Below, one piece after another: positions 8,377-64,000 of a stretch of 64,000 nt of DNA. Source of the DNA: Desulfobacteraceae bacterium UBA5616. Its GTDB lineage: Bacteria; Desulfobacterota; Desulfobacteria; Desulfobacterales; UBA5616. Under the pieces are notes generated by a model, which had not been told where the DNA came from, did no database searches, and was given only the letters and a program-made list of their open reading frames with translations. The number at the start of each line of letters is the position of its first letter. Within the stretch, counting starts at the first letter, position 1. The stretch lies in assembly GCA_002423615.1 (NCBI GenBank), contig DIKO01000105.1, forward strand, positions 507 through 64,506, read 5' to 3'. The position numbers were made by a program, and so were the translations under genes.

Positions 8377-8441
8377 CTACATTTTCAAAATGCAAAAGAG
8401 TCGCATAAAAAATTACCCAAATTCGACAGGAGGAGCAATCT

Positions 8442-9761
8442 ATGACGGATCGTGTGGTTAAACTCGGCGGTAAAAAAAATTCAACCTTTATGGACAAGGT
8501 TAAGAAAATTTTGCCGGAAGGCGGAAATTTAAACCTTTGCCTGACCTGCGGGGCCTGCTCTTCGGGCTGCCCGGCCACGGGCCTGGACGGGATGGACCCC
8601 CGGAAATTTTTGCGGATGGCGGCCCTGGGGATGGATGAAGAAATCGCAAAATCCGACTGGCCGTGGATGTGCACCATGTGCCAGCGCTGCATTTACGTCT
8701 GCCCAATGAAAATCGATATTCCCCAGCTCGTCTATAACGCCCGGGGACTCAGGCCTCGGGAGGAACGGCCAAGGGGTATCCTGGGCTCCTGCGACATGGC
8801 CCTGAGGAATAAAAGTACCAGCGCCATGGGAACCTCACCGGAGGATTTCGCCTTTGTGGTCGGAGATGTTCTTGAGGAGTACCGGGAGGCCCAGCCTGAA
8901 TTCGCCGACATGGAGGCCCCCATCGACAAACAGGGTGCGGAATTTTTTTTAAACCAGAACTCAAGAGAACCGGTCACCGAACCGGACGAAATGGTCCCCC
9001 TGTGGAAAATTCTTCATCTGGCAGGAGTCGACTGGACTTACGGCAGCAGCGGCTGGGGCGGCGAGAACTATTGTATGTTCCTCGCGGACAACGATTCCTG
9101 GGAGCAGATCACCCGCACCACCGTAGATCAAGCCAACCAGCTGGGGGTTAAAACGTTCCTGAACACCGAGTGAGGCCACGTGACATTCTCAGTCCTGGCA
9201 GGACTGAAAAAATTCAACCTCGAACACCATTTTGAAGTCAAAAACATCTACGAGTACTACGCCAAATGGATCCGGGAAGGCAAGCTCAAGGTCAACTCCG
9301 ACTGGAACAAGGATCTGAAAATCAAATTTACCGTACAAGACCCCTGTCAGATCGTTCGAAAAAGTTATGGAGACCCCATTGCCGAGGATCTCCGGTTTGT
9401 GGTGAAATCCGTGGTGGGGGAGGAAAATTTCATCGACATGACCCCCAACCGGTCCAATAATTACTGCTGCGGCGGCGGCGGGGGTTTTTTGCAATCGGGT
9501 TTCAAGGAACAGCGGCTGGAATACGGGCGATTAAAGGACCAGCAGATAAAGGCCACGGGCGCCGACTACTGCATTGCCGGCTGCCACAACTGCCATGCCC
9601 AGATCCATGAGCTCAGTGAACATTACGGCAGCGGATACCCGGTGGTGCATCTGTGGACCTTGATCTGCCTCTCCCTGGGGGTTCTGGGACCCAATGAGCG
9701 GGAGTACCTGGGGGACGATCTCAAGGAAGTCAATGTCTTCCACCCGGAGACGGCCATGTAA
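8442..9761 (+). CDS. HdrD/GlpC-like Fe-S oxidoreductase (2x CxxCxxCxxxCP plus CCG domains), probable selenoprotein with in-frame UGA at 9171-9173
   Basis: Track ORFs 8442..9173 and 9180..9761 are in the same frame, separated only by TGA-GGC-CAC. The N-part has CLTCGACSSGCP and CTMCQRCIYVCP. The C-part has a canonical CCG domain (C-x39-CCG-x36-CHNC). The UGA sits in C-x31-E-U-G, where the first CCG motif is expected. A hairpin follows the UGA. Confidence 0.7.
9189..9207 (+). promoter_or_regulatory. putative bacterial SECIS hairpin
   Basis: CAGUCCU-GGC-AGGACUG is a perfect 7-bp stem (plus a flanking U-A pair) starting 16 nt after UGA 9171-9173, with a G-rich apical loop. Confidence 0.5.
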
Positions 9762-9777
9762 TCAACAGAAATCGGTC

Positions 9778-10143
9778 ATGACGGAAAATTTAACGATAAC
9801 AGAACTCGAAAAACGCTGGGATCATGTTTTGTCGGCCACCCAAAGGGCTGTAAACAAAAATCCCGGCGTTTACCGCCTTCTCAAATCCCTTGCCGGGGAT
9901 ATTGTTGAAAATCCCCTGGATATCCATGAGTACATGCCCACGGTGGGAAGGCTTTCCGATCTGCTTGAAACCCTGGACCCCGGGGGGAACGGCAGCATAT
10001 TCAGTATTTTCAACGAACGCATCAAACCCGCTTCCATCTGGCAGGTGGCCCTGTTGCGGGTGGAGTGCGGGGATCTTCTGGCCCATCTGAAGGAGTTTGA
10101 TAAATGGCGGTGTTCGAGCGCCGGATTGAGACTCGTGAAGTAA
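9778..10143 (+). CDS. hypothetical protein
   Basis: ATG 9778 lies just after the stop of the Fe-S gene. The track ORF from 9694 would overlap that gene. No motif recognised. Confidence 0.4.
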   Translation: MTENLTITELEKRWDHVLSATQRAVNKNPGVYRLLKSLAGDIVENPLDIHEYMPTVGRLSDLLETLDPGGNGSIFSIFNERIKPASIWQVALLRVECGDLLAHLKEFDKWRCSSAGLRLVK

Positions 10144-10281
10144 AGTCGGCTGCAACCGTCTCTGATCAGCCGGCAGCACCTTCGAAAACCTTGCTGCAAT
10201 TAGACCTCACCCCGTTCCTTCAAAACCGTTTCCTCAAAACCTTCGGCAAATCCATTGAATTATGCGGCACCGAAAACCGTC

Positions 10282-10342
10282 TTGACAGCCGGGTGCGGGC
10301 CCGGATATACTGACACGTAAATTTTATTTATCGTGTCAGTAT
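10282..10342 (+). promoter_or_regulatory. sigma-70-like promoter overlapped by an 11-bp perfect inverted repeat (candidate operator)
   Basis: TTGACA (10282-10287), 18 nt, TATACT (10306-10311). ATACTGACACG (10307-10317) and CGTGTCAGTAT (10332-10342) are exact reverse complements separated by 14 AT-rich nt. Confidence 0.5.
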
Positions 10343-10373
10343 GACATCACTCCCATCGACCAAGGAGACCGTG

Positions 10374-11333
10374 ATGCAGTTTCAAACCGCCGGAGTCGAA
10401 GTCGCTGTCTGGGTCCCTCCCCTGGTGGCGTTCGTTATTTCCTTTTTCACATCCATGGGGGGCGTGTCGGGTGCTTTTCTGATTTTACCCTTTCAGATGT
10501 CATTTCTCGGCTACACCCACCCTTCGGTGAGCGCCACCAACCAGCTCTACAATATCGTCGCCATCCCGAGCGGCGTGTACCGTTATTGGAAAGAAGGCAG
10601 AATGGTGTGGCCCCTCACCTGGATTGTCATAACCGGCACCCTGCCCGGGGTTTTCATCGGCGCTTTTCTCAGGGTCGCTTATCTGCCGGACCCAAAAAAT
10701 TTCAAACTGTTCGCAGCGGCCGTACTCCTTTATATCGGCATCCGGATGGCCGGGGACCTGGTCCGGAAAAAATCCGGCGCCAACGACAAGGTCGCCGGCG
10801 ACAAACGTTTCCAGGAGATGGTGCGGCGGCGACGGGAAAAAATGGACTCCCGGGACCTCGCTAATAACGATTTACCCGCCGTGAAGGTCACTCATTTTAA
10901 TTTAAAGCGTCTGGGGTACACTTTTTACGATGAGCAGTTCGATGTTCCCTTCTGGGGGATCTTTTCCTTGAGTTTTATCGTGGGAATCGTGGGCGGCATC
11001 TACGGCATCGGCGGCGGTGCGATTATCGCCCCCTTCTTTGTGACATTCTTCAGGCTGCCGGTCTATACAGTGGCCGGAGCGGCCCTCATGGGGACCTTTG
11101 TGACATCCATTGCCGGCGTGGCTTTCTTCCAGGCCTTGGCGCCGTTTTATCCGAACATGTCCGTAGCTCCGGACTGGCTGCTGGGCGCTTTGTTCGGTTT
11201 GGGCGGCATGGCCGGAATGTATCTCGGTGCGCGTTGCCAGAAATTCGTACCGGCCAGGGCCATCAAATGGATGCTGGCCGGCATTCTCCTTTTTACGGCA
11301 TTCAAATACATCGCTGAATTTTTGGGGTATTGA
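10374..11333 (+). CDS. TSUP (TauE/SafE) family anion exporter
   Basis: Polytopic protein with duplicated Gly-rich TSUP motifs (MGGVSGAFLILPF, GIGGGAIIAPF). ATG 10374 has an AAGGAG RBS 6 nt upstream. The track start at 10341 is also possible. Confidence 0.75.
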   Translation: MQFQTAGVEVAVWVPPLVAFVISFFTSMGGVSGAFLILPFQMSFLGYTHPSVSATNQLYNIVAIPSGVYRYWKEGRMVWPLTWIVITGTLPGVFIGAFLRVAYLPDPKNFKLFAAAVLLYIGIRMAGDLVRKKSGANDKVAGDKRFQEMVRRRREKMDSRDLANNDLPAVKVTHFNLKRLGYTFYDEQFDVPFWGIFSLSFIVGIVGGIYGIGGGAIIAPFFVTFFRLPVYTVAGAALMGTFVTSIAGVAFFQALAPFYPNMSVAPDWLLGALFGLGGMAGMYLGARCQKFVPARAIKWMLAGILLFTAFKYIAEFLGY

Positions 11334-11363
11334 TGCAGGACAAACCGCCGCCCGATCAGAAAA

Positions 11364-11654
11364 TCAGGATTGTCCGTTCATCATCCAGCCGTTCATCAGC
11401 GTCCATGCACCCACCGCGACAAAGGCGATCCCGGCGCCGATTTTGATATACTGCTCCGGGACCCAGCGGCTTATCAGGTCCCCGAGCAAAACAGCCATGA
11501 GAGTGCATGCAATCAACGCTCCGGCTGACCCGATAAATACCGAGACCTTGGATTTGCTCCCCGCCGCCAGCATGAGAGTGGCCAGTTGGGTTTTATCGCC
11601 GACTTCGGCCAGAAACACCAGACCGAAGGTGGTCAACAGGATCTTCAGATTCAT
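11364..11654 (-). CDS. GDT1/TMEM165 (UPF0016) family half-size membrane protein
   Basis: 96 aa, 3 TM, with the signature E-x-G-D-K-T (LAEVGDKTQLAT). Confidence 0.75.
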   Translation of the reverse strand: MNLKILLTTFGLVFLAEVGDKTQLATLMLAAGSKSKVSVFIGSAGALIACTLMAVLLGDLISRWVPEQYIKIGAGIAFVAVGAWTLMNGWMMNGQS

Positions 11655-16503: not shown

Positions 16504-17508
16504 CTAATGCCTGATCCTGTCTTTTAATTCCCGGATAAGGGCCGTGCATAATTGGCCCGCATCCGCAACTATAGCCACATCGGCCATCTTCATCATGGCG
16601 GCGTTGGCGTTTTTGTTCACGGCGATGATAAAATCAGCCTCGCTCAAGGCCGCGGTATGCTGAATGGCGCCGCTGACGCCGAAGGAAAACAGAACTTCCG
16701 GCGCCACTTGTTTTCCGGCCTGGCCCACCAGGGCCTCTTCATCCACCCATTTGGAATAAACCACGGGTCGGGTGGCCCCCACTTCTCCACCAAGGAGTTC
16801 CGCCAGTTCAAACAGTTTTTTATATTTCGCCCTGCTTCCCATGCCCCGGCCCCCGCAGACCACGACCTTGGCATCCTCGAGGCGCTGTCCGGTTTGCTCC
16901 CACCGTTTCGCGCTGATGACCCGGAGTCGGTCCTTGGGCAGATCCCTGGGAAGGGGAACCCGGATGACATCTCCCGCCGCCTGGTTATCGTGGGGGATCT
17001 CCTGAAACGTCCCCGGCCTGACCGTGGACATCTGGGGCCGGTGCACGGGCGTCACGATTTCCGCCAGAAGATTTCCGCCGAAGGACGGGGCCATCTGCAC
17101 CAGAAGACCTTCTTTATTGATGTCCAGGCCGACGCAATCCGCGGTCAGCCCCGTACCCAGCTTTTTCGCAACTTTGGGAGCGAACTCCCGGCCGAAGGTC
17201 GTGGCGCCCACCAGGATGATTTCCGGTTCATGTTTCCTGGCCAGCCGCTCCATGAGGATGCTGTAGGTCTCCATGCTGTAATCCTGCAGGGCCGGATCCT
17301 CGATGACGTAAACTTTACGGGCACCGTGGGCGATGTACTCCCCCACCCATTCGTCGACATTGTTGCCGAACACCACCGCCGCCACCGTTGCCTTTATCTT
17401 TCCGGCAAGTTCATTGGCTCTGGACAATAGTTGCAGGGTGACACGGTTTTCAAAATAATCCCGATAGTCCCCGAAAACCCATATGCTTCTTTCTTTTTTT
17501 CCGGCCAT
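16504..17508 (-). CDS. etfA: electron transfer flavoprotein alpha subunit
   Basis: 334 aa with a C-terminal FAD-binding region (VVCGGRGMG...FGVSGAIQH). Confidence 0.9.
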   Translation of the reverse strand: MAGKKERSIWVFGDYRDYFENRVTLQLLSRANELAGKIKATVAAVVFGNNVDEWVGEYIAHGARKVYVIEDPALQDYSMETYSILMERLARKHEPEIILVGATTFGREFAPKVAKKLGTGLTADCVGLDINKEGLLVQMAPSFGGNLLAEIVTPVHRPQMSTVRPGTFQEIPHDNQAAGDVIRVPLPRDLPKDRLRVISAKRWEQTGQRLEDAKVVVCGGRGMGSRAKYKKLFELAELLGGEVGATRPVVYSKWVDEEALVGQAGKQVAPEVLFSFGVSGAIQHTAALSEADFIIAVNKNANAAMMKMADVAIVADAGQLCTALIRELKDRIRH

Positions 17509-17509
17509 T

Positions 17510-18343
17510 TCAGGTATCTGCTTTTTTAATGTCTTTGCGGATGACGCCCCCGATTTTATCGCCGAACCGGGTAAAAAGCTCCTCGACGATCTTCTTGGGG
17601 GATCCTTTCAGGACCACGTTGTTCTTTTTGGCCGTTGGGGAATATACATCCAGGATCCGGGTCGGCGACGCTTTGGACCCCAGAAGGTTTATGTCCAGGC
17701 CCAGGTCTTTCGCCCCCAGGCTGAGAATCGTTCCCTTGTCGAAGGTATCCTGAATTCCCTCCATGGACACGTACCGGGGGAAATACTCCCTGGTGGAAAT
17801 CGTCACCAGCCCGGGAAGATCCATTTCCAGGGTTTCAAGGAAATTATCCGACAGTCTTTCCAGCCTCAGAATTTTCCCGGAAAGCGTCAGTTGGTGGACA
17901 TTGGCCGCTCCGGGAATTTTCAGTTCTTCAGCCAGTTGCGGACCCACCTGGGCGGTTTCGCTGTCGATGGTCCGGTTGCCGCACATCACCAGGTCAAAAT
18001 CCGGACACACTCCGGCAACGGCCCTGGCAAGCGTAAACGATGTAACGGAAGTATCCGCCCCTGCCATGGCTCTGTCCGTGAGCAGGACCCCCTGATCCGC
18101 CCCCATGGCCATTGCTTCCCGGAGGACTTCTTCCGCCATGGGCGGGCCCATGGTAAATACGACGATCCTGCCGCCATGGCGCTCTTTTAATTGCAGGGCG
18201 GCTTCCAGTGCATGTTTGCAGGCCGGATTGATCATCCCCTCAGCCAGATCCCGTTTAAGGGTTCCGGTTGCGGCGTCCCAGGGCAATTCGGAAACAGCCG
18301 GTACCTGTTTGATGCAGACCACCAGTTTCAATATATCGCTCAT
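17510..18343 (-). CDS. etfB: electron transfer flavoprotein beta subunit
   Basis: 277 aa with an EtfB-like N-terminus (VVCIKQVP) and a 1-nt gap to etfA. Confidence 0.9.
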   Translation of the reverse strand: MSDILKLVVCIKQVPAVSELPWDAATGTLKRDLAEGMINPACKHALEAALQLKERHGGRIVVFTMGPPMAEEVLREAMAMGADQGVLLTDRAMAGADTSVTSFTLARAVAGVCPDFDLVMCGNRTIDSETAQVGPQLAEELKIPGAANVHQLTLSGKILRLERLSDNFLETLEMDLPGLVTISTREYFPRYVSMEGIQDTFDKGTILSLGAKDLGLDINLLGSKASPTRILDVYSPTAKKNNVVLKGSPKKIVEELFTRFGDKIGGVIRKDIKKADT

Positions 18344-48594: not shown

Positions 48595-48681
48595 TGGTGC
48601 CGAAGCGGGGACTCGAACCCCGATGAGCGTACACTCACTAGACCCTGAACCTAGCGCGTCTACCAGTTCCGCCACTTCGGC
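48595..48681 (-). tRNA. tRNA-Leu (anticodon CAG)
   Basis: 87 nt folded by hand: acceptor GCCGAAG/CTTCGGC, anticodon arm CTAGG-TTCAGGG-TCTAG, long variable arm, T-arm CGGGG-TTCGAGT-CCCCG, encoded CCA. Confidence 0.95.
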
Positions 48682-54502: not shown

Positions 54503-54961
54503 ATGGGAAAATCAACCCAATTGAAAAAGGTTCTGGTTATCCATGGCCCGAATTTAAACATGCTGGGCAAAAGAGAGCCCGGGTTATACGGCACTCTCCC
54601 GCTTCCGGACATCAATCAGAAACTCACGGAACTGGCGAAAACCCTCGGTATGGGGGTTGACACCTTCCAATCCAACCATGAAGGCGGCATCATCGATAAA
54701 ATCCAGTCCGCCATGGGCAATTATGACGGTTTGATCATCAATCCCGCAGCCTACACACACACGAGTATCGGCATCCGGGACGCTCTGTTGCTGTTGAGCG
54801 TCCCGGTCATTGAGATTCATCTGTCGAACATTTATAAGCGGGAACCCTTCCGCCACAGGTCCATGATATCCGATATCGTCACGGCCCAGCTTGCCGGTTT
54901 CGGGCCGGACGGGTATTTCATGGCACTGGAAGCCATTCATAAAATATTGGAACAGCCGTGA
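54503..54961 (+). CDS. aroQ: type II 3-dehydroquinate dehydratase
   Basis: 152 aa with HGPNLNMLGKREPGLYG and IINPAAYTHTSIGIRDA. Confidence 0.95.
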   Translation: MGKSTQLKKVLVIHGPNLNMLGKREPGLYGTLPLPDINQKLTELAKTLGMGVDTFQSNHEGGIIDKIQSAMGNYDGLIINPAAYTHTSIGIRDALLLLSVPVIEIHLSNIYKREPFRHRSMISDIVTAQLAGFGPDGYFMALEAIHKILEQP

Positions 54962-56688: not shown

Positions 56689-57596
56689 TCATCGACGTCC
56701 ACACCCATCTCGGCGACATCTTATACGCAGGCGGCGGCCGGTTGATTTTACGGAAAGGGGTTGTGAAAAATGCCGCTTTTGACCTGATCTCCCTGACCGA
56801 GAGGGGACTGTACAGATCCAACGCCATGATGGAATGGCTGCTCAATACCTTTTTCACCGACACGATCGCCAATGCCTGCCGATACCGGAACGCCACGGCG
56901 ACCTTGGAAAATATGCGCAAATCCATGGATGAAAACAAGGTACTGCGGTCGGTCTGCCTGCCCATTTTACCGAACCTGACGTTTGACGACCTCAAAGCCG
57001 CCGGCAAGCTGGATGAGGGCATAATTCCATTTACCGGCGTTGATTTTTCCGGGGATTTTAACCCGGATGCGGTGTTTCGAAACGATGTGGCCTCAGGGGC
57101 CAGAGGGTTGAAGCTGCATCCCATCCTCCAGCAGGAACCGTTAAACAGCCGGAAGACCTGTGCGGCGGTGGACGCATTTGCCGTTCACGGCTTGCCCGTG
57201 CTCTTTCACGCAGGCGTTCAGTCCTACTACCGGGGCCTGGAAAAAGAAACACGGCAGCGGCCCGAATACGGTGAACCACGCGAAGGATTTGCGATTGTGA
57301 AAGCGTTTCCCCAAATCCCGTTTATCGTCGGCCATGCCGGAATCTTCCAGTATCGCGAGACGATCGGGCTTTTCAGCAGTTTGAAAAATGCCCACGTGGA
57401 CACTTCATTCCAGTCTCCGGCACGGATTCGGGAGCTGATCAAGGCATTCGGACCGGAACGGGTCATGTTCGGTTCGGACTGGCCCTGGGGGAACCGCAGG
57501 GCCAATATCGCCTCGGCGTCCAAGGCGTGCCGGGGCGACAAGTCGCTTGAAAAAGCAATTTTTTATGACAACGCGGCACGGCTTTTGAAGATATGA
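56685..57596 (+). CDS. amidohydrolase-2 family metal-dependent hydrolase
   Basis: 303 aa with MIIDVHTHLGD (HxH), HAG and GSDWPW. Confidence 0.75.
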   Translation: MIIDVHTHLGDILYAGGGRLILRKGVVKNAAFDLISLTERGLYRSNAMMEWLLNTFFTDTIANACRYRNATATLENMRKSMDENKVLRSVCLPILPNLTFDDLKAAGKLDEGIIPFTGVDFSGDFNPDAVFRNDVASGARGLKLHPILQQEPLNSRKTCAAVDAFAVHGLPVLFHAGVQSYYRGLEKETRQRPEYGEPREGFAIVKAFPQIPFIVGHAGIFQYRETIGLFSSLKNAHVDTSFQSPARIRELIKAFGPERVMFGSDWPWGNRRANIASASKACRGDKSLEKAIFYDNAARLLKI

Positions 57597-57642
57597 ACCG
57601 GCCATCGAAATAGAAAAACGCCTAAGGCGGGCCTTTCACGAT

Positions 57643-58359
57643 TTACGATTCAGGATTTACAGCCTGCTGCGCCAATAGTTCTCTCAGCCATTCCGGTTCC
57701 GCCTGGGGATTGCCTTCCAGGAGGGCGGCAATTTTTCCAGTGACCTGCGCGGCGGCAAAACTGTGTCCCGAAAAATTCATGTTTTCAGGAATCCCAGTCA
57801 ATTTTCGCGGCCGGCCCGATGCGCCGAATTCGATCCTGCAGCCTGGATGGCAGATAATTTCCCCCTTCCGGCACTGCCGATTCCAATACACGCCGATGAC
57901 TCCGGGCAAGCCTGCGGGGAAAATATCGTCTTCCGGAGACCGTGCGGCGGCAACCATAATGATATGCTTCCTGTATGCTTCACGGCACAACTGCCCCAAC
58001 CTGGCCTTGCAGGCGTCCTGTTCGGTTCCGAGGCTTAAATGAATGATTTTCATATTCTCATCAATGGCCCATTTGAGCCCGGCTATAAGCAGGTCCACGG
58101 GCGCTTTTAATTTGTCATAAAATATTTTGACCGCATACATGTCCGCGTCCGGCGCCTTTTCCCGAATGACGCCGGCGATTGCCGTTCCATGGCCGATATG
58201 ATCGGAAAAATCAGGGTTCTCGATGATATCCGCGGTTTCATCCATCCGAAACGAAATACCTCCGGAAACACCATGGACATGGGGATGAAAGGGGTTAATC
58301 CCGCTGTCGATAATCGCCACCGGCACACTCATGGGCAAATCCTTCTGCCGGGCCTTCAT
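57643..58359 (-). CDS. qhpE: minimal subtilisin-like (S8) serine protease, QhpE-like leader peptidase candidate
   Basis: 238 aa with no pre-pro region. The catalytic triad context is AIIDSG (Asp), HGTAIAG (His) and SGHSFAAAQVTG (Ser). It is the last gene of the qhp-like cluster. The start is uncertain (58359, 58332 or 58326). Confidence 0.6.
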   Translation of the reverse strand: MKARQKDLPMSVPVAIIDSGINPFHPHVHGVSGGISFRMDETADIIENPDFSDHIGHGTAIAGVIREKAPDADMYAVKIFYDKLKAPVDLLIAGLKWAIDENMKIIHLSLGTEQDACKARLGQLCREAYRKHIIMVAAARSPEDDIFPAGLPGVIGVYWNRQCRKGEIICHPGCRIEFGASGRPRKLTGIPENMNFSGHSFAAAQVTGKIAALLEGNPQAEPEWLRELLAQQAVNPES

Positions 58360-60073
58360 ACGCCAGACCCCGGCTGTCTAAAGCAATAATTCTATCCGCA
58401 TGGGCGATCGCGGAATACCGGTGGCTCACGATCACGATGGTTTTATCTTCCATTAAATGACCCAGCGTGTCTTTTAAACGATCCTCCGTGGAAACATCCA
58501 CAAATGCCGTGGCCTCGTCCAGTATCAGGATTTTCGGCTTCATTAGAACGGCCCGGGCAATGCTGAGCCGCTGTTTTTGCCCGCCCGAAAGAAGTACGCC
58601 CCTGTCGCCTATGACCGTGTCATACCCGTTGGGCAGCGTTTGAATAAACCCGTCAATGCAGGCGGATTCAGCCGCCGACCGGACCTCGTCCATGCCGGCG
58701 CAGGGCTTTGGAAACCGGATATTTTCAAGGATGGTCGTATGAAACAGGAAAATATCCTGGGAAACAATTGCTGCCTGTTTGCGGAACCATTCTGGGTTAA
58801 TGGTTTTAAGATCAATGCCGCCGATTGTGATGACCCCTGAATCCGGGTCGAAAAGCCGCAGCATCAAATGGCATAAGGTTGTTTTCCCTGCTCCGCTGGG
58901 GCCGATGATTGCCGTGATCCTGCGGCCGGGGATCTGAAAGGACATATGGTTTACCACCGGTTTTCGATCATAGGCAAAACAGACATCCCGAAATTCAATA
59001 TCCCCGGTGACGGCGGCCTCTTTTTCCGGGATTATGCCGCCGCAGGTGGTTTGAACGGGCAAAATATCGAGAATCTCCCTGACCCTGGCCAGGCTGACCA
59101 GTGATTTCTGCAGGGATAAAAAACCGTCCATCAGCGCTTTTAACGGGCCGAATACCCTGCCCTGGTAGATCGAAAACGCCACCAGACTGCCGATCGTCAG
59201 GGTGTGTGCCAGCACGAGCGAACCGCCGTAACCGAATACCACCACGGCGTTGAGAATCACAAAAACGGTCGGAATTGATCCGGAAACAGCGCCCAGCACC
59301 TGATATCGCATCAGAAACCCCAGAATATGAGACTGTTTTTCATTGAGTCTGCTCCGCTCGATCTTTTCAGCGCCAAAGGCTCTGATCATATGGGTATTGC
59401 TGAGGGATTCAAATATAAAATGCGAAATTTCCGCGTTGCTTCGGGCCACCTGATGGCCCAGGTCCAGCAATTTCGGACGAAGGCGATAAATTATAATAAG
59501 GGCCGCCGGCAGAAAAGCGAAGCTTAACAACGCCATTTTCCAGTTCAATGCCATCAGCACGCCGGCGGCGATCAGACAGGTGAGCAGATTGAATGCGACC
59601 ATGGGAAGGACATCGGTCGCAAGGGATTGAATATCGGCCATATCCGATGCGATGCGGGAATAGAGATCCCCGATTTTCTGCTTTGAAAAAAAGTTGAGGG
59701 GAATTTTCTGAACGTGCTCGAACAGGTCCTCCCGCATGTGAAACAGTATTTGCGCGGAATAGCGCATATAGAGGAAGCTGTTGATCACCCGGATCGCAAA
59801 AGCAAACAGGATCAGGGCCAGGAGCAGTGATAACACGGGCCATAACAACCGGTGGTCGGCGGCAAGAAACACCTTGTCGATCAGAACCTTGGCAAAATAA
59901 GGCTGCGTCATTCCGAAAACAGTGCTCAGACCGCTTAACACAAGGGAAAGAATCAAGATTTTTTTCCGCGGCTTCAGGTATTTTCCCAGATAGGCAAGCT
60001 GTGTCCCGGAAATGTATCCGGCAACACCGTTTGATTTTTTCCGGATCGGTTTCAGGTTTCGCGAAAATAACAC
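58295..60073 (-). CDS. qhpF: ABC exporter (fused TMD-NBD), QhpF-like
   Basis: 592 aa with 6 TM segments plus an NBD (GPSGAGKTT, LSGGQKQRLSIARA, ILILDEAT). There is no C39 peptidase domain. Confidence 0.6.
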   Translation of the reverse strand: MLFSRNLKPIRKKSNGVAGYISGTQLAYLGKYLKPRKKILILSLVLSGLSTVFGMTQPYFAKVLIDKVFLAADHRLLWPVLSLLLALILFAFAIRVINSFLYMRYSAQILFHMREDLFEHVQKIPLNFFSKQKIGDLYSRIASDMADIQSLATDVLPMVAFNLLTCLIAAGVLMALNWKMALLSFAFLPAALIIIYRLRPKLLDLGHQVARSNAEISHFIFESLSNTHMIRAFGAEKIERSRLNEKQSHILGFLMRYQVLGAVSGSIPTVFVILNAVVVFGYGGSLVLAHTLTIGSLVAFSIYQGRVFGPLKALMDGFLSLQKSLVSLARVREILDILPVQTTCGGIIPEKEAAVTGDIEFRDVCFAYDRKPVVNHMSFQIPGRRITAIIGPSGAGKTTLCHLMLRLFDPDSGVITIGGIDLKTINPEWFRKQAAIVSQDIFLFHTTILENIRFPKPCAGMDEVRSAAESACIDGFIQTLPNGYDTVIGDRGVLLSGGQKQRLSIARAVLMKPKILILDEATAFVDVSTEDRLKDTLGHLMEDKTIVIVSHRYSAIAHADRIIALDSRGLAYEGPAEGFAHECAGGDYRQRD

Positions 60074-61041
60074 ATATACCCCTTTTCACAATACTGCGGC
60101 GTATTTCTGAGTTTTTTGGCCAAGGCCTCGACAGCATCCCACGTTGAATTGCGCCGGACTTCCGTCATGACTTCCGCAACCAGTTGAAGACTTCTCATTT
60201 TTCGATAAAAGGATGCCTCACGGCCGACGATTTTAACGGCGGAAACTCCCCAGTCCCTGAATTGCCCGAACCGGCAGAGGCTGCAGGGACCATTGGGCAA
60301 TCCTTCGGACTGGAAGCTGCATCCGCAATTGTTCTGATACCAGAGAAATTCACGGAACCTTTCCATGTCCTTCATAAGCGCTTCTTTGCCGATCTTCTTT
60401 CCCGATCCCGGAAAAAATTCAGGCGTCCAGTCGGTCATGCAAAACGGGCCCAGGGCATGGGAGGTCTGGCAAAATCCCTCTTCAAAATAACATCCGTCGT
60501 TAACGGCAAACACCTCGAATTCCATGTTCAACCTGTTTTTCTTGACGATCGATTCTATTTCAGAAAGATTCAGGTGCCGGGGGAGGATGATCCGTTTCAC
60601 GCCGAGAAAACCGTAGTATTCCACGGATTCCGAGTTGGTGCAGGCGCCCAGGCTGCTTAAATGGATTTTAACCGGCAGTTTTTCCTTGCCAAGCGCGATT
60701 AAAAAATTGAGATCCGATACGATCAGTCCGTCGATTTCAGCCAGCGCGACCAGTTTTTCGCAAAACCGCAAAATGGGTCCTACGCTGTCGTGAGGATAAA
60801 ACGGTGAATTAAACGTGATGTAAACCGCCGCCTCTTTTTCATGAGCAAGTTTTGTTATCTTCAAGACATCCTGAAATGAAAAGAGATTGCCCGCGGCCGG
60901 ATCCCTTCTGTTGATCCACAGTCCCCCGCCGTAGGCACTGTCCCATTCCGGCAGGCCGATGCCGGCATACAATTCATCCGCGCCGAAATGCAGAAGCATC
61001 TCCGTTTCTTCCAAACGACATACGGGGGCAGCAATTTTCAT
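60052..61041 (-). CDS. U32 family protein, UbiU-like
   Basis: 329 aa. EVFAVNDGCYFEEGFCQTS fits the spacing of the U32 signature E-x-F-x2-G-x2-C-x4-G-x-C-x2-S. SAVKIVGREAS resembles the UbiU segment ASVKIEGRQRS. It has additional Cys (CMTD, CGC, CSLC). Confidence 0.75.
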   Translation of the reverse strand: MKIAAPVCRLEETEMLLHFGADELYAGIGLPEWDSAYGGGLWINRRDPAAGNLFSFQDVLKITKLAHEKEAAVYITFNSPFYPHDSVGPILRFCEKLVALAEIDGLIVSDLNFLIALGKEKLPVKIHLSSLGACTNSESVEYYGFLGVKRIILPRHLNLSEIESIVKKNRLNMEFEVFAVNDGCYFEEGFCQTSHALGPFCMTDWTPEFFPGSGKKIGKEALMKDMERFREFLWYQNNCGCSFQSEGLPNGPCSLCRFGQFRDWGVSAVKIVGREASFYRKMRSLQLVAEVMTEVRRNSTWDAVEALAKKLRNTPQYCEKGYMCYFRET

Positions 61042-61047
61042 CGTATG

Positions 61048-61923
61048 TTATAACGCAAATCCTTGATACACGAGGCGGAATGAACCTTCCACCGAAGTAA
61101 AAACGGTGTTGAGCACGGCCGCTGGATACAGGTAGTAAATCGTATTGCCGTTTTGAAACAGTCTGAACTGAAACCGCTCATGCACCAGCTCCAGCACCTG
61201 ATGCGTGCAGGGCCGAAGGCAGTCTTCGCGGATCAAAAACTTTTCTCTTCCCTTCCCTTTTCGAGATTCGGCCTGGCACAGGCGGCCGGTAGTAACAACC
61301 CCAAAGGGAAAATATACGGATACTCCCATGTCCGAAAGGCCCCGGCTGATGCCGGATCCGTAGGGCAGGATGTCCTGCTCGATGCGCCGGACATTGATGG
61401 ATGACAGATGCTCCAGAAACGTCCGGTGGCGAAAAGTGCTCTCGTTGAGGGCATTCTGCATGGATTCAGACATCGAAGCGTCATCCCACGGCCAAACGAA
61501 CCGGGGGTCTTTGAATCCTTTGTTGAATAACCGGCCCGCAGCCAGGCGCAGACCGGGGTATTTTTTTCGCACATGCCATAAAACACCCGGGTCATTTGTG
61601 ACCACCTCGGCCCCCGGGCAGTCATTTTCAAGACAGGCAAACAGGGGGGCGCATTTTTCAAGATGCCGGTCGGTCATGGGCGGCGTCAGGAATGTCAGAC
61701 CGGCGGTGTGGTTTTGTGAAAACCGGCTGAACTCGCGGATTTCCTTTAACGAGGGCAGGCGGTGAAAACAAAATTCATCCCCGATATACAGCCGGTAAAT
61801 CTTTTCGGAACTGCAGCCAAAATCAGCAGGGACATTTTCCGGATAAAAGGAACGCAGATGGCGGATCAGGATATGTTCAGATATCTCCTGCTTCAGATCC
61901 CGCACATGAAACGCCAGTTCCAT
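61048..61923 (-). CDS. U32 family protein, UbiV-like
   Basis: 291 aa. LYIGDEFCFHRLPS resembles the UbiV segment IYLGEAVCSKRR. Further Cys are present (CAPLFACLENDC, GRLCQ, CLRPC). There is a 6-nt gap to the UbiU-like gene. Confidence 0.6.
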   Translation of the reverse strand: MELAFHVRDLKQEISEHILIRHLRSFYPENVPADFGCSSEKIYRLYIGDEFCFHRLPSLKEIREFSRFSQNHTAGLTFLTPPMTDRHLEKCAPLFACLENDCPGAEVVTNDPGVLWHVRKKYPGLRLAAGRLFNKGFKDPRFVWPWDDASMSESMQNALNESTFRHRTFLEHLSSINVRRIEQDILPYGSGISRGLSDMGVSVYFPFGVVTTGRLCQAESRKGKGREKFLIREDCLRPCTHQVLELVHERFQFRLFQNGNTIYYLYPAAVLNTVFTSVEGSFRLVYQGFAL

Positions 61924-61929
61924 TTGCCT

Positions 61930-62478
61930 CTATCGGGCGCCGCCGTCCGGTAAGGCGGCTGTTTCAACAGGTTTTACGGGTTCATAAAACTTTTGCCCGT
62001 TTCGCATTTCATGGTTATGGCAGTCTTTGCACGGCTGCCTCGAGATATCGTTGATCAGGGCTTTATGAATGGTGAGTTGATCGATTTCCTTATGGTTTTT
62101 AGCCTCCTTGCACGTAAAGCACCGGCTGTTGGGCACATGGCTCCAGTACCCGGGTTCCAGATCGTCTTTTAAAAAAAGCGGTTCGGCAATGGGTTTCAGG
62201 GGTTCATCGGGGTCTCTTTTAAAATGGGCTACCAATTGCTTTGCCGACGAAACGTTCATGTCCATCCACCCGGCAAACCCGGCATCAAAGTGACAACCTG
62301 CGCAGTTCGGATGATTTTTGGCGGTCCGGGATTCTTTCCAGCGGTTGACCGGATCTCTCATCTCATGGCAGACAATGCAGGTCTTGTCCGGGAAATATCG
62401 CATCGAGGCTTCATGTACGCCAAGCCCCAGGAAAAACAACACCAGCAAAACGGTGACGATCGATATCTTCTTTTTCAT
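61930..62478 (-). CDS. membrane-anchored NapC/NirT/NrfH-type multihaem cytochrome c
   Basis: 182 aa with an N-terminal TM. Haem motifs are CIVCHEM (CxxCHxM, as in NrfH haem 1), CAGCH, CFTCK (Lys in place of His) and CKDCH. Confidence 0.8.
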   Translation of the reverse strand: MKKKISIVTVLLVLFFLGLGVHEASMRYFPDKTCIVCHEMRDPVNRWKESRTAKNHPNCAGCHFDAGFAGWMDMNVSSAKQLVAHFKRDPDEPLKPIAEPLFLKDDLEPGYWSHVPNSRCFTCKEAKNHKEIDQLTIHKALINDISRQPCKDCHNHEMRNGQKFYEPVKPVETAALPDGGAR

Positions 62479-62516
62479 ATTCGCTCAGCTTTTATCGGGT
62501 TTGCTGCAATTTGCAG

Positions 62517-63548
62517 TTATTGTGAAAACCGATTGAACACCATGGCATCCCCGCCCACGGGAATGGCCGTCTCGAATTTCAACGTTTCTGCGTCATAAAT
62601 GCTGACATCCGCGCCCATGGCCCCGATATAGACTTTCTTTCCATCCGGGCTCAAGGCGATGGAGGTATAGCTTCCCCTTTCCGCATAGGTCGCGTTGACT
62701 GTTTCCCCGGTGGCCACATCCACTTTGACCAGTTCATCGTGACCGGCATAGATGTATTTTTTGTCCGGCGACAACGCAGCGGAAAAAGGCATGGCCATCT
62801 CCTTGCTCTTGATCGACCTGATTTCTCCGGATACCATATCCAGAATCAGATAATACAACCCGGAGGACGCGTAATACGGAGCGGCAAACAACTGATGGTC
62901 TCCGGGACTGTTGTTGGTGTACATGGCGACGATGCTTCTTTGCTCCTGGTCTTTTTCCGCATGAATGCCGGCCATGATCATTTCAAGTTCACCGGTTTTC
63001 AGATTGATTTTATACACATCCAGCCCGAACAGAATCGCATGGTCCGGGTCATTTCGAACCGGAAATATGCCGTGGACCCCATAGGGCAATTCGTAACTCC
63101 GAACCACTTCCTTCTTCCCGATGTCAAATATCGCAAACTGCGGGGGCAGAACATTGAGTTTGGGAATATTCTGCTTTTTCTTGACGATCTGGCAGCTTAC
63201 AAAGAGTTGTTTCCCGTCGTTGGACACCGCTGTGGTAAAAATCGTCACACGGCTCAGATCCGTTGAAAATCTGTACGTATCGATCAGTGAAAAGGTCTTC
63301 GTATCCACTGCAAAAATGGAATGCAGGGCATTGAGATAATATCTCCTCCCGTCCGGCGAATAGCTGGTATTCAACACATAATCGGAGTAACGCGCGCCCT
63401 CGATGACCCGGCCGGTTTCGCAGTTCACCACATCCAGCCCCTTTACGGTGGGGACAAGGATGTAATCGACAGCCAGGACGGGCAATTGGAAAAGTGCCCA
63501 TACCACCAAAGTCCATAGAAAAATCACAAGCTTGATTCTGCTTTTCAT
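62517..63548 (-). CDS. qhpB: secreted 7-bladed-type beta-propeller, QhpB (amine dehydrogenase beta subunit)-like
   Basis: 343 aa with a signal peptide and repeated YVTN-type blades (SYSPDGRRYYL, AVSNDGKQLFVS, ALSPDKKYIYAG, ALSPDGKKVYIG). Its size and its position after the qhpC-like gene match QhpB. Confidence 0.6.
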   Translation of the reverse strand: MKSRIKLVIFLWTLVVWALFQLPVLAVDYILVPTVKGLDVVNCETGRVIEGARYSDYVLNTSYSPDGRRYYLNALHSIFAVDTKTFSLIDTYRFSTDLSRVTIFTTAVSNDGKQLFVSCQIVKKKQNIPKLNVLPPQFAIFDIGKKEVVRSYELPYGVHGIFPVRNDPDHAILFGLDVYKINLKTGELEMIMAGIHAEKDQEQRSIVAMYTNNSPGDHQLFAAPYYASSGLYYLILDMVSGEIRSIKSKEMAMPFSAALSPDKKYIYAGHDELVKVDVATGETVNATYAERGSYTSIALSPDGKKVYIGAMGADVSIYDAETLKFETAIPVGGDAMVFNRFSQ

Positions 63549-63562
63549 GGCGGCGCCCCCTT

Positions 63563-63889
63563 TTACCTTTTAATCACATAATTCAAATTTTTCCAATCTT
63601 TCTGAATCGTTGCGCACTGTTCCTGATAATCGGGGAAAGCGGTGATGTTGTCCGGGGTCTGGGCCGGCCACCAGCACGGTCCGGAGCAGTTGCTCCAGTC
63701 CCGCGCGCTGGAAGCACAATTTCCAACAGGCGCCGCAGGATTGGGGTTGGTCTCCCAGCCGGGATCAAAAACAGTGGTGCAGCCGATGGGCATTCCGGTG
63801 ATCACATCTTCATCCGCCATGCCGAAAACTTCTTCTTCCGCCATTTTCTTTGCCCTCCTGTTAATGGGCTTCAATCCTTTTTTCTTCAT
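63563..63889 (-). CDS. qhpC: QhpC-like gamma-subunit precursor (cysteine tryptophylquinone / thioether-crosslinked peptide)
   Basis: 108 aa. A basic/acidic leader is followed by GCTTVFDPGWE...NCASSARDWSNCSGPCWWPAQTPD. The spacings C37-E46 (9), C58-D64 (6), C68-W74 (6) and C72-D80 (8) equal those of the known crosslinks. An AAGGGGG RBS is present. Confidence 0.8.
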   Translation of the reverse strand: MKKKGLKPINRRAKKMAEEEVFGMADEDVITGMPIGCTTVFDPGWETNPNPAAPVGNCASSARDWSNCSGPCWWPAQTPDNITAFPDYQEQCATIQKDWKNLNYVIKR

Positions 63890-63904
63890 ATTCGCGCCCC
63901 CTTT

Positions 63905-64000
63905 TCAATGTCCTCTGAGTCGTGCAAGACGATCCAGATAGTCGGGCCGGTCGATGGCAAGCTTGGCATACACCGTCAGCCCGATTCCCGTCCATTCCCT
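63905..64000 (-). CDS. 3' end of an unidentified upstream gene (5' part outside the window)
   Basis: Open frame ...REWTGIGLTVYAKLAIDRPDYLDRLARLRGH ends at TGA 63905-63907, 15 nt before the qhpC-like start. Synteny with qhpADCB would predict a qhpD-type radical SAM gene, but the sequence visible here cannot show that. Confidence 0.4.
   Translation of the reverse strand, partial: REWTGIGLTVYAKLAIDRPDYLDRLARLRGH

Follow-up and report, generated by a model that had tools for sequence, protein, structure and literature searches.

Introduction

Quinohemoprotein amine dehydrogenase (QHNDH), the product of the qhp genes, carries a cysteine tryptophylquinone (CTQ) cofactor in its gamma subunit QhpC. 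It is known that the flavin adenine dinucleotide (FAD) monooxygenase QhpG uses O2 to place both oxygens on the tryptophan of the crosslinked QhpC, inside a cytoplasmic complex formed by QhpC, QhpD, and QhpG (PMC7876137). Known tryptophylquinone maturation (MauG, LodB, GoxB) depends in all cases on O2 or H2O2 (PMC11951088). An O2-independent aromatic hydroxylation is known from a different pathway, where it requires UbiU-UbiV, a heterodimer whose two subunits each hold one [4Fe-4S] cluster (PMC6747719); in this O2-independent hydroxylation of ubiquinone the oxygen comes from prephenate, which has been proposed as the donor for U32 proteins generally (PMC10990095). Here, we analyzed a stretch of 64,000 nucleotides from Desulfobacteraceae bacterium UBA5616 (contig DIKO01000105.1), the whole of which is hereinafter referred to as the window. 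Its region 57643-64000 harbors, on the minus strand, the 3' two-thirds of a qhp operon in which QhpG is the only canonical component without a gene, and which contains two additional adjacent genes, encoding a 329-aa protein of the U32 family (hereinafter U32) and a 291-aa protein (hereinafter X).

We propose, with a probability of roughly 70%, that the X-U32 pair is an O2-independent peptidyl-tryptophan hydroxylase replacing QhpG. The replacement is strongly favoured by the fact that X-U32 and QhpG are mutually exclusive across the qhp clusters; the hydroxylase activity is proposed by analogy with UbiU-UbiV.

Distribution of X-U32 and QhpG in qhp Loci

Three sets of loci were surveyed. The first one (36 loci) was obtained by scanning one genome per species with an alignment of X; the second one (80 loci, with QhpC identities of 34-73%) by scanning metagenomes with an alignment of QhpC; and the third one consists of two canonical operons, located on plasmids of Pseudomonas nitroreducens and Paracoccus pantotrophus, each with an annotated FAD monooxygenase gene adjacent to it. 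The open reading frames (ORFs) found up to 10 kb on each side of a locus were classified with phmmer and jackhmmer, the QhpG queries being those of Pseudomonas and Paracoccus. X and/or U32 are present in 63 of the 117 qhp loci and QhpG in 12, and no locus contains both. Neither is present in 42 loci, nearly all of which are contigs that are short or truncated, or loci of the split A-C-B type with the maturation genes located elsewhere. No match to QhpG was retrieved in the 64-kb window, its parent contig, or the 63 loci of the X/U32 type; the same search recovered QhpG in every canonical-type locus (12/12, E-values of 1e-128 to 1e-190).

X and U32 are adjacent and encoded on the same strand in 57 of the 59 testable loci. 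In all the 110 QhpC sequences examined, those of Pseudomonas and Paracoccus included, the CTQ tryptophan, the CTQ cysteine, and every thioether residue are conserved. Since QhpC keeps the CTQ Trp and Cys, the need for Trp dihydroxylation persists in the clusters lacking QhpG.

Three clades of qhp clusters were defined on the basis of QhpC identities and of a neighbour-joining tree of QhpD, which has no support values and is to be taken as indicative. Clade 1 (Desulfobacterota type) includes the window and shows the order A-D-C-B-cyt-X-U32-F-E, where cyt is the gene for a tetrahaem cytochrome. In clade 2 the order is A-D-C-B-X-U32-F-E, without the cytochrome; one of its members bears the label of a Rubrivivax metagenome-assembled genome (MAG). 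Clade 3 is the canonical one and is mostly of the QhpG type. Here, loci L126, L127, and L135 are organized as A-D-C-B-F-E-G, and loci L106 and L115 as A-D-C-B-F-E-X-U32; the QhpD of L115 shares 56-59% identity with that of the QhpG-type loci L137, L134, and L099, and 47-54% with the others compared. Read from the sequences, the gene order of clade 3 is that of a non-orthologous displacement in place, with X-U32 substituting for QhpG or vice versa. A preliminary description of this DNA had placed a U32 pair in the stead of QhpG, and both the distribution of the two among the loci and the slot occupied in L106 and L115 bear this out. The embedding of X-U32 in qhp clusters is conserved in three deep clades and in several phyla and, since more than 60 independent loci share this set of genes, the gene arrangement of the window is far beyond chance.

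As for the hosts, 34 of the 36 loci from the genome scan belong to Desulfobacterales, Desulfobacteraceae, Desulfococcus, Desulfosarcina, Syntrophobacteraceae, and related MAGs; a cultured host is Desulfosarcina variabilis str. Montpellier (NZ_CP159846.1, L013). The variant is also found in Acidobacteria, as in the locus labelled Terriglobales/Koribacter (L119). The locus of a MAG labelled 'uncultured Draconibacterium sp.' (CAXXPP010000004.1, L012) has the same coordinates and near-identical scores as that of D. variabilis, and its label is probably wrong.

Other arrangements were observed in single loci or in a few of them. Some clusters of the Desulfobacterota type contain two QhpB-like genes, in the order A-C-B-D-B'-X-U32-F-E-cyt (L010, 5880-9920; L016, 6193-9907; L069). 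A 2.4-Mb chromosome of a Deltaproteobacteria MAG (CP070710.1, L006) harbors, at 8420-11440, only qhpC-qhpB-X and a truncated U32 gene (182 aa), with no qhpA, qhpD, qhpE, or qhpF nearby, and this locus is probably the remnant of a decaying cluster. In L007, the complete cluster is followed, about 2.4 kb downstream (16720-17832), by a fragmentary duplicate of the ABC ATPase gene (140 aa) and by another S8 protease gene.

The U32 Protein and X

The 329-aa protein matches PF01136 (Peptidase_U32) with E=7.6e-28 (97.8 bits vs. a cut-off of 22.4). It shares 26% identity with Escherichia coli UbiU across 198 residues, and the profile of its family matches the UbiU profile in hhalign with a probability of 99.8% (E=2e-27), in agreement with the UbiU-like nature attributed to it earlier. 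Its residues C184, C191, C201, and C239 align with C169, C176, C193, and C232, the [4Fe-4S] ligands of UbiU (PMC6747719); the first three are invariant and C239 is nearly so. Four more cysteines (C253, C256, C318, and C324) are invariant in all three clades and absent from UbiU, and might serve as a further Fe-S or metal site. The equivalog models give scores far below their cut-offs (UbiU NF047963, 66.5 bits vs. 440; TrhP, 62.5 vs. 534), and the hidden Markov model (HMM) scores for TrhP (73.5 bits), UbiU (69 bits), and RlhA (58 bits) are similar; because of this, the protein is to be considered a member of a separate subfamily rather than a UbiU orthologue.

The members of the X family are annotated only as "hypothetical". 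X was compared with UbiV and UbiU profiles built from nine diverse ubiT-ubiU-ubiV loci from plasmids. These replaced a single UbiV and a low-diversity enterobacterial UbiV alignment, which had given uninformative or misaligned hhalign results; the relatives retrieved with E. coli UbiV are all at least 73% identical, and nearly all at least 85%. X matches the UbiV profile with a probability of 92% (E=6e-7) and the UbiU profile with one of 5%; as a calibration, the UbiV and UbiU profiles match each other at 95%. The alignment sets Cys52 of X (GDEFC) on Cys39 of UbiV (GEAVC). X has exactly four invariant cysteines, C52, C216, C235, and C239, arranged as CXnCX18CX3C, and the pattern of UbiV is CXnCX12CX3C, with a first Cys so far upstream as to have been noted as unusual (PMC6747719). 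Among the loci of groups 1 to 3, C52 and C216 are present in 62/62 sequences and C235 and C239 in 61/62, owing to a gap in one G2 sequence; all four are kept in 100/100 distant representatives of the family. In its sequence pattern, the putative Fe-S ligand set of X and U32 matches that of UbiV and UbiU. The AlphaFold model of X (predicted local distance difference test, pLDDT, of 84) is confident and shows an alpha/beta barrel-like fold. Neither X nor U32, both cytoplasmic, has a signal peptide, and their translation would be coupled to that of the qhp genes.

The E. coli UbiV homologues all carry PF01136, unlike X. Judging from these comparisons, X is a remote relative of UbiV and not a recognisable U32 domain protein. 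The lengths that had been given for E. coli UbiV (292 aa) and UbiU (331 aa) in the preliminary description are correct.

Organization of the Operon in the Window

The region 57643-64000 contains seven ORFs on the same strand and the 3' end of an eighth gene, qhpD:

57643-58359, minus strand: S8 protease, qhpE-type minimal subtilisin (NF049966 QH_SP, 163.3 bits vs. a cut-off of 165)
58295-60073, minus strand: ATP-binding cassette (ABC) exporter, qhpF-type (ABC_membrane and ABC_tran; no peptidase domain)
60052-61041, minus strand: U32-family protein of 329 aa, UbiU-like, putative Fe-S protein (PF01136)
61048-61923, minus strand: X, 291 aa, cytoplasmic, remotely UbiV-like (hhalign to the UbiV profile and Cys pattern)
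61930-62478, minus strand: membrane-anchored tetrahaem cytochrome of the NapC/NirT/NrfH family (PF03264)
62517-63548, minus strand: qhpB-like beta-propeller with an N-terminal signal peptide (best match TIGR03907, below the cut-off)
63563-63889, minus strand: qhpC, gamma-subunit precursor with leader (NF037958)
63905-64000, minus strand: 3' end of qhpD, radical S-adenosylmethionine (SAM)/SPASM thioether maturase, with its stop at 63905 and the remainder past the window edge (reading frame)

The intergenic gaps are 6, 6, 38, 14, and 15 nt, the first being that between X and U32; the U32 and ABC genes overlap by 22 nt, and the ABC and S8 genes overlap too. The seven minus-strand genes previously described, together with their spacings and overlaps, agree with this layout in all coordinates. 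An exact match of the QhpC sequence allowed the operon to be extended beyond the window on the parent contig L001 (JGI 3300002220 MLSBCLC_10005085, 68.6 kb). There, the whole operon consists of nine genes, qhpA-qhpD-qhpC-qhpB-cyt-X-U32-qhpF-qhpE, of which the window contains the 3' two-thirds, and a divergent gene for a TetR regulator lies upstream of qhpA. The search of the upstream region for qhpD, qhpA, and qhpG, which had been suggested, disclosed the first two and no QhpG-like ORF.

The operon is that of a periplasmic QHNDH and of its maturation machinery. QhpC passes its model (NF037958, 120.5 bits vs. a cut-off of 50), as the preliminary description of a qhpC-like peptide had anticipated, and retains the thioether pairs C37-E46, C58-D64, and C72-D80, together with Cys68 and Trp74 of CTQ. 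An extra cysteine of QhpC, C92 (QNQC motif), is invariant in clades 1 and 2, and the QhpG-type QhpC mostly has Ala or Lys at this position. QhpA, whose gene is at 1189-2826 of L001, outside the window, has two CxxCH motifs and scores 308.7 bits with TIGR03908 (cut-off 274.35). QhpD (472 aa; L001, 2876-4294) has TIGR03906 as its best match by a wide margin (433.4 bits vs. a cut-off of 453), and the location of its gene adjoining qhpC is conserved. The propeller had been called QhpB-like: TIGR03907 (QH_beta) is indeed its best match, phmmer (E about 1e-17) links it to the annotated peaD/QhpB of the canonical loci L046 and L047, and its place after qhpC is conserved, but its score (85 bits) lies below the cut-off of 223.2. 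QhpE is borderline for NF049966, has the Asp/His/Ser triad, and its IDSG, GHGT, and GxSxA motifs align with those of the canonical QhpE. The ABC gene occupies the same position as in the canonical operons L046 and L047. On the whole, the profile matches agree with the cluster as first described, i.e., a qhp cluster for a CTQ amine dehydrogenase that lacks a flavin monooxygenase and has a UbiV-like/UbiU-like pair.

As for the rest of the window, ten large ORFs checked for hints about the lifestyle of the organism are housekeeping or regulatory and none is diagnostic; the organism is likely an anaerobe. A scan of 57000-64000 for promoters and terminators gave counts not above those of shuffled sequence. 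Across the 64 kb, the sole match to an Rfam family at the gathering threshold is one tRNA gene (48598-48681, minus strand). A gene of the shikimate pathway, aroQ (type II 3-dehydroquinate dehydratase), is located on the plus strand at 54503-54961 of the window (L001, 13238-13696), about 2.7 kb past the end of the operon. This proximity is probably a coincidence, and is mentioned since prephenate, the proposed oxygen donor of U32 proteins, lies downstream of the shikimate pathway.

The Tetrahaem Cytochrome

The cytochrome has an N-terminal anchor and matches PF03264 (NapC/NirT) with 34.5 bits (cut-off 24.1); the equivalog models do not reach their cut-offs (NrfH, 31 bits vs. 134; NapC, 22 vs. 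349; TorC likewise). Its four haem motifs (C34xxCH, C59xxCH, C120xxCK, and C150xxCH) are at conserved positions in 32 orthologues (L007-L043). The third one is CxxCK in 24/32 of them, the window included, and CxxCH occupies that position of the alignment in the other eight. A haem site of the CxxCK kind, such as that of NrfA, normally depends on a dedicated haem lyase, and no gene for such a lyase was seen in the clusters.

The cytochrome gene is present in 24 of the 35 complete X/U32 clusters, all belonging to clade 1, where it is sometimes located after qhpE, and is absent from the other two clades. The cytochrome-less X/U32 variants bear Rubrivivax, Gammaproteobacteria, and Acidobacteria MAG labels. 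It had been suggested that this NrfH-type cytochrome replaces the electron-transfer subunit. This does not hold: since a bona fide dihaem QhpA is encoded just upstream on the same contig, the cytochrome is an addition, not a replacement of QhpA. By analogy with its family, it is most plausibly a link, specific to Desulfobacterota, between the haems of QhpA and the menaquinone pool, menaquinone being the quinone used by Desulfobacterota.

Proposed Maturation Route and Alternative Explanations

In the proposed route, QhpD would form the three thioethers of QhpC in the cytoplasm and, after this step or together with QhpD, a putative X-U32 heterodimer would catalyze the 6,7-dihydroxylation of Trp74 without O2. 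The hydroxyl oxygen would probably come from prephenate, by analogy with UbiU-UbiV; the Fe-S clusters would carry the electrons away, and the extra cysteines of U32 may form a further centre. The peptide would then be exported by QhpF and its leader removed by QhpE, and CTQ would be finished on assembly with QhpA and QhpB. In clade 1, the menaquinone pool would receive the electrons of the QhpA haems through the tetrahaem cytochrome, which would take the place that a soluble cytochrome or azurin and the oxidase chain have in aerobes.

Several points weigh against the assignment of X-U32 as an O2-independent hydroxylase replacing QhpG. The function of the pair is read from gene context and family analogy, and that of the cytochrome is one that we infer. 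The preliminary description had considered the 291-aa protein a UbiV-like U32 protein; the likeness to UbiV stands on the profile match and the Cys pattern, but X has no Pfam or NCBIfam match, and PF01136 finds none even at E<=10 in X and in all 39 members of its family. The match to UbiV spans just about 100 N-terminal residues, and the hhalign comparisons restricted to the C-terminal part or run globally are not significant; because of this, the correspondence of the last three cysteines of X rests on their pattern. Foldseek against the PDB returned only weak, generic barrel matches for the fold of X, there being no solved U32 structure for comparison. The lack of QhpG refers to 10 kb at most on each side of the loci. 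A link of the variant to anaerobes had also been proposed, and Desulfobacterota dominate the clade of the window, but other X/U32 clusters carry MAG labels (Terriglobales, Rubrivivax, and Gammaproteobacteria) that are not those of strict anaerobes. To our knowledge, no U32 protein acts on a protein substrate. Furthermore, no U32 protein has been shown to have hydroxylase activity in vitro (PMC10990095).

The alternative that survives best is that X-U32 catalyzes another O2-sensitive step of CTQ formation, i.e., the oxidation of dihydroxy-Trp to the quinone or the formation of the Cys-Trp thioether, or acts as a chaperone or electron relay of QhpD, the Trp oxygens coming from elsewhere, e.g., from water through a further enzyme. 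Gene context alone cannot tell which chemical step the pair performs, the four extra invariant cysteines of U32 suggest additional redox centres, and QhpG itself also stimulates, non-catalytically, the crosslinking by QhpD in a ternary complex (PMC7876137). Nevertheless, the hydroxylase QhpG is the only missing component and X-U32 the sole universal addition to these clusters; no other candidate hydroxylase is conserved in them, and the characterised U32 systems are all tied to the hydroxylation of (hetero)aromatic carbons (PMC6747719, PMC10990095). We therefore regard this alternative as unlikely.

It is very improbable that X-U32 belongs to an unrelated quinone or RNA pathway and is merely a neighbour of qhp, even though U32 scores alike against TrhP, UbiU, and RlhA and X-like/U32 pairs also exist outside qhp (see below). 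In three deep clades the pair lies inside qhp; in the window it is flanked by qhpB/cyt and qhpF, where the gaps measure 6 nt and U32 overlaps qhpF. Genuine ubiUV loci have a different appearance, since the nine examined all have an adjacent UbiT gene (SCP2) and the order U then V. No UbiT was found by phmmer or jackhmmer in any qhp locus and no ubi genes are present, in line with the lack of ubiquinone genes first described for the window, and Desulfobacterota are menaquinone users. The assignment of X-U32 to a ubiquinone pathway was thus rejected, UbiT being absent and the pair being inside qhp.

Lastly, a peptidase processing QhpC or another subunit, as the Pfam name Peptidase_U32 and the label 'collagenase-like PrtC family protease' of the homologues would have it, is hardly credible because QhpE is retained, with an intact triad, the invariant cysteines match those of UbiU/UbiV, and the component that X-U32 excludes is QhpG, not QhpE.

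Wider Family and Significance of X

The relatives of X are numerous: among 1.84 billion representative proteins searched with a profile, 2,012 clusters (formed at 50% identity) were related to X at E<=1e-3, and a Pfam domain is absent from all ten representatives sampled (0/10). Distant pairs of X-like and U32 genes occur also outside qhp. In an Omnitrophota locus (L044, 2083-13388), the pair is found among genes for a SPASM radical-SAM protein, three B12-binding radical-SAM proteins, and an ATP-grasp protein; L045 is a further example, and in L140 (341-5041) the pair lies beside the genes for a creatininase-family protein and a B12 radical-SAM enzyme. As far as gene content goes, these pairs hint at a general anaerobic module for the modification of peptides or natural products.

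On a slight balance, we favour a broader reading, in which X-U32 would be the first U32 hydroxylase acting on a protein, converting Trp to 6,7-dihydroxy-Trp without O2 and enabling a menaquinone-wired amine dehydrogenase in strict anaerobes, and the X family would consist of general partners of anaerobic hydroxylation, not recognised by Pfam and serving also radical-SAM clusters and clusters like those for peptides made on the ribosome and modified after translation (RiPPs). In the full-text literature, with most subscription journals outside its scope, no paper was found that links U32 proteins with tryptophylquinone or amine dehydrogenase, nor any earlier account of QHNDH in sulfate reducers or of anaerobic CTQ formation, and a bioRxiv match for "U32" concerned selenocysteine U325 instead; the paper on QhpG (PMC7876137) and a 2025 review of protein-derived cofactors contain the QhpG route only.

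If true, an O2-independent route would account for the presence of a complete QHNDH operon in obligate anaerobes, and quinoprotein amine respiration would extend to sulfate-reducing sediments. The known U32 substrates are a membrane lipid or large RNAs, and the one presumed here is a small soluble peptide that can be traced by mass spectrometry. The existing QhpC/QhpD reconstitution system could thus make the U32 chemistry, the prephenate donor, and the electron acceptor directly testable. X and its roughly 2,000 relatives now bear the label "hypothetical"; if they were recognised as UbiV-like partners, many anaerobic biosynthetic clusters would be better annotated.

Comparison with Known Systems

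The cytochrome resembles the tetrahaem quinol dehydrogenases NrfH, NapC, NirT, and CymA in its N-terminal anchor, four haem motifs, and PF03264 domain. It differs from NrfH/NapC in its third motif, CxxCK in most orthologues, and in its presumed direction and partner, as it would reduce the quinone and receive electrons from QhpA rather than serve a reductase.

As for the maturation of other tryptophylquinone enzymes, MauG (for tryptophan tryptophylquinone) and LodB and GoxB (for CTQ in LodA and GoxA) are dedicated enzymes that oxygenate a peptidyl Trp, as proposed for X-U32; the operon in the window, unlike these systems, has no candidate haem peroxidase or flavoprotein. RlhA and TrhP, which are required for 5-hydroxycytidine (ho5C) and 5-hydroxyuridine (ho5U) to form in RNA, are likewise U32 proteins, are implicated in an O2-independent, prephenate-linked hydroxylation, and give HMM scores to the U32 partner similar to that of UbiU. 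However, each consists of one larger protein (653 and 453 aa, respectively), has RNA as its substrate, and lacks a separate V-like partner.

The closest counterpart of the whole operon is the canonical qhpADCBEFG(R) of Paracoccus denitrificans and Pseudomonas putida, with which it shares QhpA, QhpB, QhpC (with the same CTQ and thioether residues), QhpD, QhpE, QhpF, and the A-D-C-B order. With respect to it, the operon has no QhpG and has X, U32, and the clade-1 cytochrome in addition; its QhpB, QhpD, and QhpE score at or below the equivalog cut-offs, and its QhpC is about 39% identical. The hosts differ as well, the canonical ones being aerobic or denitrifying Proteobacteria and the named hosts of the window's clade sulfate reducers and syntrophs.

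The closest counterpart of the pair itself is UbiU-UbiV(-UbiT) of E. coli and other Proteobacteria. X-U32 departs from it in the lack of UbiT, in the V-like gene coming first, in the lack of PF01136 in X, in the four extra cysteines of U32, and in the presumed substrate, a peptidyl tryptophan instead of a polyprenyl phenol. In both cases, two adjacent genes encode proteins of about 330 and 290 aa, the larger of which keeps the Cys ligands of UbiU, and the smaller has the CXnCX(12-18)CX3C pattern and the N-terminal homology that make X similar to UbiV. UbiU-UbiV is an O2-independent alternative to flavin monooxygenases, which is the role here proposed for X-U32 with respect to QhpG.

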